Below are positions 76-52,608 of a stretch of DNA of 54,576 nt, piece after piece. The stretch comes from a virus. The stretch covers positions 1 through 54,576 of IMG/VR virus record IMGVR_UViG_3300001528_000116, one strand, 5' to 3'. The translations under genes and the position numbers were made by a program. Below the pieces are notes generated by a model that worked only from the letters and a program-made list of their open reading frames with translations, was not told the origin of the DNA and did not search any database. Position 1 is the first letter of the stretch. Every line of letters begins with the position of its first letter.

Positions 76-427
76 GGATTTTGTCGGAATCGTCATCCGG
101 TCTGTGTAGCACGTCCCACCATAAATCCACCATCATTGACTGCAGCCTCTCAAAGATAATATCGCAGTATGCGATACATTCTCTCTGTAAAGCCTTGCGG
201 TACTCGACCTGCTCAGGCTTAAATGCGAATACGCCGTTTGCCTTTATGATAAGGTCGATCTGTGCCTGTGACAGATTTATGACAGGGTATGTATACACAG
301 AGCGCCACCGCTTAGGTACATTCTTTTCACGCATGAGGAAAGTTGTAAGCTCATGCCGGATGTTAATAGCAGTGACATAGAAGTCCATCTCCGATATGCC
401 GCGGTGTCTTTCAAGTACGTTACTCAT
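1..427 (-). CDS. avd: DGR accessory variability determinant (Avd-like), N-terminal 142 codons; continues across the circular junction
   Basis: Manual minus-strand translation from ATG 427: MSNVLERHRGISEMDFYVTAINIRHELTTFLMREKNVPKRWRSVYTYPVINLSQAQIDLIIKANGVFAFKPEQVEYRKALQRECIAYCDIIFERLQSMMVDLWWDVLHRPDDDSDKIRIQKFIDNMGKLLVFEEDRLRRWRN. The frame is open to base 1. It is a helical protein lying between VR and TR, as avd does in the BPP-1 DGR. It is absent from the ORF track because the window edge splits it. Confidence 0.7.
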   Translation of the reverse strand, partial: MSNVLERHRGISEMDFYVTAINIRHELTTFLMREKNVPKRWRSVYTYPVINLSQAQIDLIIKANGVFAFKPEQVEYRKALQRECIAYCDIIFERLQSMMVDLWWDVLHRPDDDSDKIRIQKFIDNMGKLLVFEEDRLRRWRN

Positions 428-444
428 ATAGCTTTTGCCTCTGA

Positions 445-462
445 CCGCCAGCAAGCTGGCGG
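445..462 (-). promoter_or_regulatory. GC-rich hairpin just 3' of VR1 (DGR target-recognition hairpin candidate)
   Basis: ccgccag-caag-ctggcgg gives a 7-bp stem and 4-nt loop. An identical 18-mer lies 3' of VR2 at 46521-46538. Confidence 0.7.
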
Positions 463-478
463 ATTTCTAAAAGATTTA

Positions 479-1369
479 TTAGATTCGGAAGCAGATGGGC
501 GCCGCGATCCAGGTACCGGTAGTAGAGTTGTAGTTGCAAACCCCGTCGCTGGTGACATACGCGAAATAAGCAGAATAGCCAGCATACGCGGAAAGCAACC
601 ACCAGCCGGAGCGGTCTTTGCTCGCACAACGCTTTTTCGCTCTGTTCATGTTTCCGATAAAAATAGGATACTGTACAAACCCACCGGCGCCGTATCCACT
701 GTTGCCCCAGCAAGTCATACCATACACTTCAACCTCAGATGGGATCCAGAGTTTACCGGTAGACTGCCAAGCCCATGAGTTATCCTGTGTGAGAACACTG
801 CCGGCCGTATATCTGCTCGGCAACAGAACTCTCTTTGTGATGATCTGATTTTTGAGCTTATCAGGCAGATAATAGAGAACACCGCCTGCCGTGTAATCAA
901 CCTCAACAGTAGTAGCCGGATCCGTCTTGCTGTTCGGTACCGTACCGGACATAGAGTTGAGCCAGTAGTTCAAATCTGACGCAAGGAACGGGTTAGGGCT
1001 GTTCGCGTTACCATTGTTGTAATCGATCTTATTCATTACATGAAGATCATTCCACAGCTCCTTACAGATAAAGTCGATATGATTTCCGACTTCCTGATCC
1101 GCATATCCGGTGTATGTGTTCATACCTGCAATCTGAGCATTGAGCTTATAACCGTTGTTGCAAGTAATAGGGATGTAGTCGCCTACATGAAGTCCGGCAT
1201 AATTACCGGCTGTTTTTCTTGCTTTGATCCACGCCCATTCATCTGAATAGTTCTTGATCTCGCTTGCAAATTTGACAGTAAGGTCAACACCGGGATAGGT
1301 ACGGTCCCCATCAACCCCGACATTGTAGTATACCTTAGTGCCTACCTTATAGCTGTCGTTATATTCCAT
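479..1369 (-). CDS. DGR target protein 1: tail-module receptor-binding candidate with a C-terminal variable region, likely C-type-lectin fold
   Basis: 296-aa ORF. The C-terminus GWWLLSAYAGYSAYFAYVTSDGVCNYNSTTGTWIAAPICFRI is encoded by VR1. The gene lies immediately after the tail-fiber genes. Confidence 0.8.
   Translation of the reverse strand: MEYNDSYKVGTKVYYNVGVDGDRTYPGVDLTVKFASEIKNYSDEWAWIKARKTAGNYAGLHVGDYIPITCNNGYKLNAQIAGMNTYTGYADQEVGNHIDFICKELWNDLHVMNKIDYNNGNANSPNPFLASDLNYWLNSMSGTVPNSKTDPATTVEVDYTAGGVLYYLPDKLKNQIITKRVLLPSRYTAGSVLTQDNSWAWQSTGKLWIPSEVEVYGMTCWGNSGYGAGGFVQYPIFIGNMNRAKKRCASKDRSGWWLLSAYAGYSAYFAYVTSDGVCNYNSTTGTWIAAPICFRI
487..615 (-). repeat. DGR variable repeat VR1 (3' end of target gene 479..1369)
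   Basis: Aligns base for base with TR 54304-54433. All roughly 16 substitutions fall at TR plus-strand T, which is A in the coding sense. The GC-rich IMH-like core gggcgccgcgatcc (497-510) is invariant. Confidence 0.9.
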
Positions 1370-1379
1370 TGTTTACCTC

Positions 1380-2525
1380 CTAATTCTCTGTGAAACAGAT
1401 AGTCATATCTGACACGCTGACTGATAACGGCTTAACACCGGAATCGGATAAGCCACCATTCTCATCAAACACCGGAACACCGCCCTGTGTAGCACCTGCC
1501 ACAACTCCGATCTTTTTTGCCAGCGCCGCATTGACTTCCTCTGCATTGGCTTTCTTACCAAGTGCAGTGTTGACCTCATCAGAGTTTGCCTTTTTGGCAA
1601 CCTCTTTCTGCAGGTTGGAAATATCGGTTGCGTTCTGCTGAATGGCAGAGTTCATAGCTGCAGCATCGTCTGAGTGACCAGAAATCCAGTCAGATATTTC
1701 TTTGAGAGTGTCAAAGTCCTCCGGTGCATCTGCGACGACCTGAGCGATAGCATCCGCGACTGTCTTTGATACGCTTCCCGGACCTGTGCCGTTTAAGGTG
1801 TCAATCGCTTCCCCATTGTCGCTTACTCTCTTTGAGAGTGCTGTATCGTCGTAGTTTTCAAGGTCTTTGAGCTTTTCCTTTTCCTCTGTGGTAAAGTCAT
1901 TGCTTGAAAGCCCCTTGCCTGCTTCCTTTGCCACAAATCCATCTGTGACAAAGTTCTCAGATGCCAGTCCTTCTACAGATGGGACAGAAATGTCAACGCT
2001 CTTGTCCTCAGGATCGATAGCCTGAGCCTCGCCGTTGACTTTGATAAGGTCGATCTTCCCGGCGTTTTCCCCGTCCTTACCGTCCAGCACTTCCTCTGTG
2101 GTGGTGCCGTCCTTGTCAGTAACAGAGATTGTCGTTACCTTACCGGACTTTGTGACGGTAACAGATGGGCTGTAGCCGTCAGCTCCCGGTTCGCCCGGAT
2201 TTCCGTCTTTGCCTGGCGCGCCAGGGTCGCCCTTTGCGCCCGGACTACCGGTATCGCCTTTAGTTCGTACCGGGATCCACTGAGCTGTGCCGTCAAGCTG
2301 TCCCCATGCGTATTCTGTGCCATCAACGGTTGTGCCGCTTGAACCGGTATACATAACTGTGTACGCGTCGCCCTCATTCGCTGAGGCTGGCAAGTCAGAG
2401 TAGTATTTAACGGCACCCAGCCAGTTAAAACCAGTAGCCACTCTGCCTAAGAGCTTGTCGGCGTAGGATTTTGCGTACTGTTTAGCCAGGTTGTAGAACA
2501 TGACTATTAACGCTAAACTGTTCAT
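1380..2525 (-). CDS. Tail fiber protein with collagen-like Gly-X-Y repeats
   Basis: 381-aa ORF with GDTGSPGAKGDPGAPGKDGNPGEPGADG, followed by coiled-coil-like segments. The C-terminus carries SDMTICF. Confidence 0.65.
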   Translation of the reverse strand: MNSLALIVMFYNLAKQYAKSYADKLLGRVATGFNWLGAVKYYSDLPASANEGDAYTVMYTGSSGTTVDGTEYAWGQLDGTAQWIPVRTKGDTGSPGAKGDPGAPGKDGNPGEPGADGYSPSVTVTKSGKVTTISVTDKDGTTTEEVLDGKDGENAGKIDLIKVNGEAQAIDPEDKSVDISVPSVEGLASENFVTDGFVAKEAGKGLSSNDFTTEEKEKLKDLENYDDTALSKRVSDNGEAIDTLNGTGPGSVSKTVADAIAQVVADAPEDFDTLKEISDWISGHSDDAAAMNSAIQQNATDISNLQKEVAKKANSDEVNTALGKKANAEEVNAALAKKIGVVAGATQGGVPVFDENGGLSDSGVKPLSVSVSDMTICFTEN

Positions 2526-51603: not shown

Positions 51604-51607
51604 AGTA

Positions 51608-51931
51608 TTAGTCCTCCTTGTCTGATTTCTTATAAGTCTTAAACTGTGAAATAGCCTGCATTACTTTGTCGTATCCAACCATGGCAGAGAGCCAGGATAA
51701 GAACATGAGAGCAATAAGGCAAACTGCCATTTTTGCATTTACAGCAGCTCCGGCCATGATGACGTAAGCAATGCCAACGGCGATTGACAGTACAACCGCC
51801 ACATATCCGGCAAGTGTATTTGCGTAGTAGTTTTTCTTATGCTCCTCTAACCAAGTCTTTATAGCCTCAGTAACCAGCCCTGTGAGGGTGGATACGATAA
51901 GTAACCCAAGCAAGAAAATTTCAAGATTCAT
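51608..51931 (-). CDS. Holin-like membrane protein
   Basis: 107 aa with three hydrophobic segments and a charged C-terminus. Adjacent to the endolysin. Confidence 0.55.
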   Translation of the reverse strand: MNLEIFLLGLLIVSTLTGLVTEAIKTWLEEHKKNYYANTLAGYVAVVLSIAVGIAYVIMAGAAVNAKMAVCLIALMFLSWLSAMVGYDKVMQAISQFKTYKKSDKED

Positions 51932-52256
51932 TCTGTGTGTCCTCCATTTCTAAAGTTTTATCTTCCTTTTTGTCAGCGCGCTCCCAGTCATGCTCCCTTT
52001 TACGGTCTTTGTTCGTGCGGATCCAACCACATATACCGCATTCGCCTATGGTGGCTGCGATAACAGCACACGCATAGGTTTCGGGTATCGCGCCGTACAC
52101 TCGGAATATGTCAAGCATCTGTGCATTGAACCAAACAAAAAAGGCACCGACCAGAATCAAAATAAGATTCAGCGTGCCTATTTTTCCAAGCGTTGCAGCG
52201 TATATAGTTTTCAGAGAGATAGGAGAGCGCCTGCGCCACTTCTTTCTGCGATTCAT
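51921..52256 (-). CDS. Membrane protein (lysis-module accessory)
   Basis: 111 aa with two TM segments. Confidence 0.4.
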   Translation of the reverse strand: MNRRKKWRRRSPISLKTIYAATLGKIGTLNLILILVGAFFVWFNAQMLDIFRVYGAIPETYACAVIAATIGECGICGWIRTNKDRKREHDWERADKKEDKTLEMEDTQNES

Positions 52257-52265
52257 GCGAACCTC

Positions 52266-52586
52266 CTAATATAATGCGTCAATTCCCTGTTCGGTCAGAA
52301 AGTCTTTCTGATCGTGTTTAATCTTCCCGGCGTAGTCAAGTGCCGCGTGCATATCCCCATTGCAGTGTGCATCTGGTATTCTCTGCACGGCGCGCGCTGT
52401 AGCCTCGCCTAAAGCGATAGCGGCGTTTACGCCTTTGATGATAAGAACCTCATTTTGCTTTCTGGCCTTATCCTTTTCATCCTGGGCGGCTTCATGCTTT
52501 GCAAGTCTGCGCTCAATGAGCCAGAAAGCAAAGGCTGTAATGCCGGATGGGATACTCATAGCAACAATCAATGTCATAGGATCCAT
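52266..52586 (-). CDS. Holin-like membrane protein
   Basis: MDPMTLIVAMSIPSGITAFAFWLIERRL... Start refined. Confidence 0.4.
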   Translation of the reverse strand: MDPMTLIVAMSIPSGITAFAFWLIERRLAKHEAAQDEKDKARKQNEVLIIKGVNAAIALGEATARAVQRIPDAHCNGDMHAALDYAGKIKHDQKDFLTEQGIDALY

Positions 52587-52608
52587 GTTGTTCTCCTTCC
52601 TGTGTAGC

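Follow-up and report, generated by a model that had tools for sequence, protein, structure and literature searches.

A one-strand, regularly spaced heptamer in the genomes of temperate Clostridia phages, possibly a nick-associated word

The viral record IMGVR_UViG_3300001528_000116 (IMG/VR), analysed over its whole stretch of 54,576 nucleotides and referred to below as the window, carries the heptamer GTGTAGC in 26 copies on the plus strand and in none on the minus strand (exact count). The window is the complete circular genome, of ~54.5 kb, of a temperate siphophage of gut Clostridia; the word is enriched, strictly polar and regularly spaced along it, recurs throughout a clade of related phages whose sites turn over while the spacing is retained, and is absent as an enriched word from the host DNA sampled. 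Among the explanations considered, the one ranked first—tentatively, and from the pattern of the sites—is that GTGTAGC may be a nick-type, phage-autonomous, strand-specific recognition word. It is of a known kind, i.e. a one-strand, clade-specific phage word, but it stands apart from the known examples by its host group, by the number of copies and most of all by its periodic spacing over the whole genome.

Counts, polarity and spacing of the word

GTGTAGC is the conserved core of the octamer TGTGTAGC, for which a preliminary description of the window had listed 22 start positions on the plus strand. Every one of them proved exact on recount (22 copies on the plus strand, 0 on the minus strand), and the octamer's complement, GCTACACA, claimed to be absent from the plus strand, was indeed found there zero times. 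Four further copies of the 7-mer, at 7312, 15818, 16676 and 18990, have A or C at -1 and lie outside the octamer set, and the hexamer GTGTAG occurs 28 times on the plus strand and 0 times on the minus strand. The sites, all given in window coordinates, are as follows:

104..110, +, GTGTAGC copy 1; octamer TGTGTAGC from 103
1487..1493, +, GTGTAGC copy 2; T at -1
3701..3707, +, GTGTAGC copy 3; T at -1
5964..5970, +, GTGTAGC copy 4; T at -1
7312..7318, +, GTGTAGC copy 5; A at -1, outside the octamer count
8738..8744, +, GTGTAGC copy 6; T at -1
11810..11816, +, GTGTAGC copy 7; T at -1
15818..15824, +, GTGTAGC copy 8; C at -1, within the octamer 'gap'
16676..16682, +, GTGTAGC copy 9; C at -1, within the octamer 'gap'
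18990..18996, +, GTGTAGC copy 10; C at -1, within the octamer 'gap'
23105..23111, +, GTGTAGC copy 11; ~85 bp upstream of the terS start
25203..25209, +, GTGTAGC copy 12; intergenic
27801..27807, +, GTGTAGC copy 13; inside the SNF2 helicase gene
29615..29621, +, GTGTAGC copy 14; inside the VapE primase-helicase gene, retained in the close relatives L001 and L003
31205..31211, +, GTGTAGC copy 15; intergenic
33127..33133, +, GTGTAGC copy 16
34562..34568, +, GTGTAGC copy 17
36682..36688, +, GTGTAGC copy 18; inside the C5-methyltransferase gene
37887..37893, +, GTGTAGC copy 19
41498..41504, +, GTGTAGC copy 20; unchanged in L003 and L012, where the flanks are only 61-64% identical
44839..44845, +, GTGTAGC copy 21; spacer directly upstream of the plus-strand integrase gene, position conserved in L018-L023
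46506..46512, +, GTGTAGC copy 22; spacer directly downstream of the integrase gene
47826..47832, +, GTGTAGC copy 23
48875..48881, +, GTGTAGC copy 24
51120..51126, +, GTGTAGC copy 25; inside the endolysin gene
52602..52608, +, GTGTAGC copy 26
13626..13631, +, near-cognate hexamer-only site, GTGTAGG
35292..35297, +, near-cognate hexamer-only site, GTGTAG with a next base other than C

The octamer, with its 22 copies, far exceeds what the dinucleotide-shuffled window yields (mean 1.78, maximum 6) and what is expected under Markov models of orders 1-4 (1.3-2.7 copies), so that both the enrichment and the polarity hold in an exact count on the two strands, the check that the preliminary description had proposed. 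In 300 synonymous-codon shuffles, preserving every protein and every intergenic site with the codons shuffled within each gene, the octamer occurred 8.6 +/- 1.4 times and the 7-mer 12.1 +/- 2.1 times, the latter with a maximum of 19, versus 22 and 26 observed. One-mismatch variants of the word stay at the background level in the window, with no enrichment, and the reverse hexamer CTACAC is missing from its plus strand (0 observed vs 5.1 expected). The information in the flanks is weak, 287 non-redundant sites from 60 sequences giving the consensus C(0.55) T(0.51) GTGTAGC y, i.e. an extended form C-T-GTGTAGC-y.

Concerning the genes, every codon phase is represented among the sites (read as A-T-x, x-Y-T or L-H) and four to six of them, depending on the gene calls, are intergenic, in agreement with the earlier view that the word follows the DNA strand and not a peptide. 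The related statement that it keeps its orientation inside the plus-strand lysogeny module is right in that both copies there (44839 and 46506) are on the plus strand; both, however, are located in intergenic spacers and not in genes.

The gaps between the 7-mer sites range from 858 to 4115 bp with a mean of 2.1 kb, and their coefficient of variation (CV) is 0.42, that of random placement being 0.95; among 20,000 random placements no more than one matched this regularity or reached so large a minimum gap. For the octamer alone the minimum gap is unusual (P=5e-5) but the CV of 0.82 is not, and the even spacing originally ascribed to the octamer is thus a property of the 7-mer, the octamer retaining only its unusual minimum gap. 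Likewise, the 11.3-kb gap reported over the tail-shaft, head and packaging module holds for the octamer only, because three extra 7-mer copies (15818, 16676 and 18990) lie inside it; with the 7-mer core the gap vanishes, and with it the hint of a mosaic origin of that module, although a lower site density and C instead of T at -1 remain in this region.

It should be pointed out that whole-word literature searches returned nothing relevant on either the 8-mer or the 7-mer, that the word matches none of the published Chi sequences, as had been claimed, and that the literature yielded no report of nicked genomes in Clostridia phages, nor of a periodic polar word in them. The complement GCTACACA is also contained in the universally conserved 16S rRNA segment GGGCTACACACGTGCTACAATGG; this overlap is probably coincidental, the chance being ~2-5% for any 8-mer.

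Distribution among relatives and in host DNA

Scans of viral contigs with PolA, TerL, RNase HI and a DUF2800 alignment, together with a scan of genomes with the integrase, yielded ~200 related loci. The 80 motif-bearing loci, covering a GC content of 43-57%, exhibit the same polarity relative to the genes, and together they contain 515 forward and 9 reverse copies of GTGTAGC in 1.3 Mb (redundant), a ratio of 57:1; the 9 reverse copies compare with roughly 24-52 expected before allowing for redundancy. The spacing has a CV of 0.32-0.64 in the nine motif-bearing loci tested, one of the loci (L188) showing 16 copies ~1.1 kb apart. A de novo word scan returned GTGTAGC as the top non-phase-locked match in four of the four motif-bearing relatives tested (p 2e-6 to 9e-9). 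In the motif-free relatives such scans revealed no equivalent polar word, the best words being codon artefacts: GACTTTG, CTGGACGA, GCTGGAA and CTATGAC, tried as analogous words, are codon or peptide effects because each is locked to a single codon phase and clustered. Another candidate, AAAAGGTA in the distant relative L015, turned out to be an iteron array instead, with nine copies at 1753-1933 and 20- and 25-bp spacing in alternation, which is probably a replication origin.

Site positions are common to close relatives, some of them despite diverged flanks; in distant members of the clade (L005 and, in part, L021) the sites are elsewhere and the spacing is similar. Identity by descent alone is insufficient for the conservation over the clade. 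The motif-bearing phages are monophyletic in the VapE tree, with the motif-free L138 and L183 on a long sister branch and the deeper outgroups motif-free as well; these outgroups have homologous PolA, VapE, SNF2 and DUF2800 (some also TerL) genes, and the word is there at the chance level. The motif status follows this tree and not the similarity of TerL or portal, the TerL identity to the window being 76-79% in the motif-free L137-L139, L142 and L149 vs 61-62% in the motif-bearing L164-L171, and phages with related structural genes but without a visible VapE/SNF2 module mostly lack the word. From this independence it follows that the copies in late genes are kept only when linked to the early region of the clade or to its hosts. 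The word constitutes a sequence-only marker for the phage clade.

The host side was covered by 20 kb of bacterial DNA at two lysogen junctions (L027:1-9992 and L018:4444-14512), one flank with buk, ptb, MatE and glmS, the other with trxB, hemC and hemD. In these confirmed host flanks GTGTAGC was found 0 times on either strand; in L027 seven 7-mers are present in the 10 kb of prophage adjoining the host flank. Because the site density falls to zero at the attachment (att) junction, the word marks the prophage-host boundary in the lysogens examined. Beyond the flanks, 79 loci were obtained by scanning metagenomes with GlmS of the host and were dereplicated, all host DNA sampled thus representing a single chromosomal neighbourhood (glmS/att) and not whole genomes. 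Host-genus DNA of 97 kb contains 4 + 6 copies vs 5.9 expected per strand, several of them orthologous repeats of one pair, and 437 kb of host and related bacterial DNA contain 13 + 21 copies vs 26.7 expected per strand, the octamer counts in the latter being 1 + 7. As far as this one neighbourhood shows, the word belongs to the phage rather than to the chromosome of its host. The preliminary description had looked to enrichment and skew in host genomes for support of a Chi-like role and of a translocase-orienting sequence of the type read by FtsK or SpoIIIE (FtsK-orienting polar sequences, KOPS; SpoIIIE recognition sequences, SRS). Neither reading is supported, the sampled host DNA, flanks and GlmS region alike, being neither enriched in the word nor skewed for it. 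Skewed words of another kind do occur in 88 kb of host-genus DNA (e.g. L071, L050, L055 and L018:4444-14512), namely CAGCCGG (50/8), CAGCCGGA (29/2) and CGGGACAG (17/0); these candidate host polar motifs are not enriched in the phage, and their counts are possibly inflated by orthologous segments.

Possible roles of the word

The closest precedent, overlooked in the preliminary description, is found in the nick-associated motifs of other phages, among them some Pseudomonas phages. In phage tf, TACTRTGMC occurs 14 times, always on the top strand and always at a mapped nick (PMC3517423), and the 61 phages of the Rembedalsseter/tf family carry a net 9.0 one-strand copies per genome vs 0.7 by chance, this enrichment being clade-specific despite low nucleotide similarity, with the nicks shown by nanopore sequencing (PMC11780129). 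Like the motifs of the tf/LUZ24-like/Rembedalsseter (TACTRTGMC / WACTRTGAC), T5 (R/GCGCRGG) and phiKMV-like phages, GTGTAGC is an exact, short, asymmetric one-strand word, roughly 10-20-fold over chance, present both within and between genes, and conserved across a whole clade at low similarity but at the chance level outside it; nor are those motifs described as host-chromosome motifs in the respective reports. Few or no short gaps are another shared trait, the minimum gap of the tf sites being 721 bp (P=0.02; CV 0.83, 11-12 of the 14 sites in the left half). The tf sequence (TACTGTGAC) and the phage consensus (CTGTGTAGC) have the pentamer CTGTG in common, possibly by coincidence.

If GTGTAGC is a word of this type, the whole clade of temperate Clostridia siphophages would maintain it by selection, and a phage-directed activity tracking the DNA one way would recognise it on one strand. 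Late in infection, a single-strand interruption would be introduced at the word, probably just 5' of the G (cf. T5 R/GCGCRGG and tf TACT/RTGMC), and virion DNA would then contain ligatable nicks approximately every 1-2 kb on one strand. Reverse copies would lead to nicks on both strands and be counter-selected, and the depletion of reverse copies fits the nick reading because opposing nicks would select against such copies. The cutting of the word, the strand on which it would take place and the protein that would read the word are inferred from the likeness to the precedents. Should nicks be made, site-specific nicking of genomes, so far described in a few groups of phages with Gram-negative hosts, would also occur in an abundant clade of temperate phages of human-gut and rumen Clostridia, in a far denser and periodic form, and the periodicity would be a new clue to a function that has been obscure for 50 years.

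Several points weigh against the nick reading. A genome with one of the known motifs has 4-14 sites, gathered in one part or half of it, in contrast to 26 even sites ~2 kb apart here (~1 kb in L188), which leave no region of the window site-free. The precedents, mostly virulent podophages or T5-like phages, all come from Gram-negative hosts, whereas the window represents a temperate siphophage of gut Clostridia; in them the nicks have been physically demonstrated, whereas GTGTAGC is known from sequence alone. The function of the nicks is obscure even in the precedents, so the analogy covers the pattern and not the benefit. Concerning a reader, no nickase was identified, either in the precedents or here, and the comparison of the regions TerL +/-10 kb and PolA/DUF2800 +/-10 kb (together ~40 of 54 kb) revealed no gene present in all motif-bearing and in no motif-free loci. 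DUF4417 is encoded in 25 of 30 motif-bearing vs 1 of 7 motif-free loci (3/7 with plus-strand-only gene calls) and the protein 23366-24148 in 20 of 48 vs 0 of 23, and RNase HI, at first seemingly motif-exclusive, proved in a dedicated scan to be confined to the sub-clade of the window. Diagnostic residues for the motif status were absent from the alignments of 13 core proteins; no column separates motif-bearing from motif-free phages in VapE, SNF2, PolA, DUF2800, the single-stranded DNA-binding protein (SSB), VRR-NUC, ArpU, TerL or portal, the 852 columns of the VapE alignment (17 motif-bearing vs 49 motif-free sequences) including 0 strictly and 5 softly discriminating ones. The cI, Cro-like and 59-aa early genes and the integrase track lineage, and these, together with the protein 24331-25149, were rejected as readers, being incompletely associated or mere lineage markers. 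A nickase like AcrIIA22 of clostridial prophages was also considered, but the 59-aa early protein had no match in the PDB chain library, assumed to include the AcrIIA22 structure.

A Chi-like role seems unlikely to us: the host AddAB (or another end-processing helicase-nuclease) would meet 5'-GTGTAGC-3' from its 3' side and switch from degradation to recombination, so that rolling-circle tails and the circularly permuted ends of injected DNA would be protected. AddAB-type Chi sequences are G/T-rich and have a length like 7 nt, and the word resembles them in both respects; it is oriented as would be expected for a nuclease that enters the tail of a rolling circle whose fork moves along transcription, and, TerS being P22 gp3-like, the ends are probably permuted, so that even coverage could help. 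In phages, an octamer that is polar and also the most frequent one is classically explained by Chi, the commonest octamer in the E. coli phages P1 and LLS, with 23 copies in LLS, 20 of them in one orientation, and 32/0 in the Pseudomonas phage MD8 (PMC12315714), and clustered Chi sites, which are not recognised independently (PMC5443536), could disfavour close pairs. The word is thus comparable with Chi of LLS, P1 and MD8 as the most frequent octamer at about one per 2 kb and, in LLS (20/3) and MD8 (32/0), also in the strong orientation bias. There, however, it is the Chi of the host, abundant in the host chromosome, whereas the host DNA sampled here lacks enrichment (0 in the 20 kb flanks, chance in 97 kb, below uniform expectation in 437 kb, unskewed), its skewed over-represented words being others, such as CAGCCGGA. 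The sites of LLS and MD8 cluster at one end and those of P1 are on both strands, in contrast to the periodic and strictly polar sites here. That headful packaging would predict evenly spaced Chi is not borne out by the first 50 kb of P1, a Chi-rich headful phage with neither polarity nor regular spacing, where Chi occurs on both strands (15 and 12) in clusters (CV 1.0-1.3; closest ~190 bp). Moreover, Chi-rich lambdoid phages typically lack a recombination module of their own (rule of Zheng et al. 2025), whereas the phage of the window has one, with its own exonuclease (DUF2800) and annealing protein (Gp2.5-like), and the depletion of reverse copies is not expected of Chi.

The preliminary description had further proposed a priming signal, which we regard as rather improbable. 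The strand displaced during unidirectional (rolling-circle) replication would be primed by VapE at 5'-GCTACAC-3', each primer starting with pppG and each Okazaki fragment being 1-2 kb long. This best accounts for the periodicity, bacterial Okazaki fragments having a natural length of 1-2 kb (sites ~1.1 kb apart in L188, a mean of 2.1 kb in the window); the word is found, as far as the loci show, only in phages with the VapE/SNF2/PolA module, its status follows the VapE tree, the conserved block opens with a purine after a degenerate position, and its complement includes CTA, the trinucleotide preferred by Firmicute DnaG, a weak point. The sites of T7-type primases (5'-GTGTC/GGGTC/TGGTC-3') are likewise short, G/T-rich, strand-specific on a single-stranded template and of Okazaki-size spacing, but their core is 3 nt long, against 7 nt here, and they occur often, without strict restriction to one strand. 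Known primases read ~3-5 nt, and a site of 7 nt would be without precedent and difficult to evolve; besides, the word does not co-vary with VapE, whose identity to the window is 63-67% in motif-free vs 59-76% in in-clade phages, relatives with the same primase family replicate without it or any equivalent, and a depletion of reverse copies is not predicted. A private 'Chi' or polar barrier, with the word pausing or redirecting a phage-encoded tracking enzyme (the DUF2800 exonuclease with the Gp2.5-like protein, or the SNF2 translocase) or forming a polar barrier that holds replication forks to one direction, appears improbable as well. The signal is phage-only, polar and genome-wide, and its presence goes with the early region (replication and lysogeny) rather than with the packaging module; a polar barrier would call for the depletion of reverse copies seen here, and lambda exonuclease, with its sequence-specific pause site, offers a parallel. 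Against it stand the lack of diagnostic residues in DUF2800, SSB, SNF2 and PolA and of any precedent for such a system. An RNA-level signal, GCUACAC acting in lytic-direction transcripts in processing, pausing or antitermination, is very improbable: all 26 copies read GCUACAC in leftward transcripts and none is in plus-strand coding sequence, but the positions within genes are scattered and unrelated to gene boundaries, the two copies of the lysogeny module would be transcribed in that sense only via antisense read-through, the word has no conserved flanking sequence and no known RNA signal is spaced so.

A functionless by-product of composition, codon usage or shared ancestry is effectively refuted by the controls. 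Part of the count does come from amino acids and codon choice, the synonymous shuffles still giving ~12 copies, and close relatives have sites in common by descent; the 26 copies, however, exceed the maximum of the 300 shuffles, the codon phases are mixed and the spacing regular, the strand bias extends over 1.3 Mb, sites turn over with the spacing retained, and outgroups of similar composition lack the word. The strand bias of Type III restriction sites (T7, EcoP15I type) comes from codon usage in co-oriented genes and needs no excess copies; it was rejected as an explanation on the mixed phases, the excess over the shuffles (26 vs 12.1 +/- 2.1) and the regular spacing. An operator role was discarded as well, the cI/cro intergenic region having no copy of the word, and the consensus motifs of phosphorothioate modification are 4-nt and unrelated to it. 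Finally, the word might be neither nick site nor Chi but a periodic polar 'punctuation', every 1-2 kb, for the clade's own tracking machine—for example an obligatory lagging-strand initiation, a phage-private Chi limiting its own exonuclease or a polar barrier setting the direction of replication—and thus a genome-wide cis-signal undescribed for phages, which we consider a possibility on the unlikely side. If no nicks are made, the strict polarity, the 1-2 kb periodicity and the absence from the host would point to an undescribed signal in replication, recombination or packaging.

The phage genome and its further features

The two ends of the window overlap by 75 bp and are bridged by the alignment of a lysogen contig; the genome is therefore complete and circular. 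Nearly all genes are on the minus strand, and the GC skew follows transcription, flipping in the lysogeny module. The main features are as follows:

19474-21006, portal
21258-22511, TerL
22504-23022, P22 gp3-like TerS
25290-25922, DUF4417
26140-26547, ArpU-like regulator
26544-27929, SNF2 helicase
27922-28329, VRR-NUC endonuclease
28611-31169, VapE-type primase-helicase
31423-31998, RNase HI
32200-32853, homologue of Tad3 (Pfam E=5.5e-21), which inhibits the type I Thoeris defence
35217-37695, methyltransferases
38097-40088, family A DNA polymerase (PolA)
40119-40832, Gp2.5-like single-stranded DNA-binding/annealing protein
41649-42875, DUF2800 PD-(D/E)XK exonuclease (Cas4/AddB-like)
44017-44478, +, cI-like repressor, lysogeny module
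44869-46479, +, large serine integrase, lysogeny module
50800-51603, endolysin
52754-54001, reverse transcriptase of a diversity-generating retroelement

A nucleotide search of a phage collection for near matches to 24 kb of the window returned none, and exact-protein look-ups found neither PolA nor the 46518-47417 protein on record; the exact look-up of cI gave only phage contigs ending at att, none with a host flank. The attP crossover is positioned at ~46394-46398, within the 3' end of the integrase gene. In a lysogen contig (L019, L027) integrase residues 1-510 and 512-536 are found at opposite prophage ends, and integration therefore swaps the last ~25 codons of the gene. Among the Logan contigs of close relatives (L268-L272 and L274), many assemblies break ~100 bp past the integrase gene, at att; their methyltransferase cassette varies by phage, consisting of N6/N4 and C5 methyltransferases or of a PAPS-reductase-like protein. 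In an Agathobacter metagenome-assembled genome, a second, ~80%-identical fragment of the 46.4-49.1 kb region of the phage, with three copies of the word, is located at L018 1-1770, directly upstream of a 96%-identical prophage end, an arrangement suggestive of prophages in tandem, or of prophage remnants, at one site.

The adjacent proteins 23366-24148 and 24331-25149 both start with MGGRGS and have low-complexity N-termini; they had no match in Pfam, PHROG, NCBIfam or PDB and are found only in motif-bearing or unclassified relatives. The diversity-generating retroelement, mapped via L027, which crosses the circular junction, comprises the reverse transcriptase, a template repeat at ~54310-54438 and a variable repeat at ~487-615; the two repeats are 129 nt long and 84% identical, the variable copy lying at the 3' end of a 296-aa gene (479-1369). 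An intergenic element of ~265 bp is present in three copies, 86% identical, at 21000-21262 (TerL/portal spacer), 28340-28612 (VapE/VRR-NUC spacer) and 50475-50740 (after the endolysin gene), each with at least 10 TGTAACA/TGTTACA repeats and a conserved GC-rich core; these are probably regulatory arrays for three transcription units. There are also seven runs of 8-9 C on the plus strand (G on the coding strand), at 31042, 33701, 35230, 36374, 36432, 36541 and 37045, five of them in the methyltransferase region, where the C5-methyltransferase frame is split (37024-37695 and 35820-37487), which suggests slippage-prone or phase-variable tracts.

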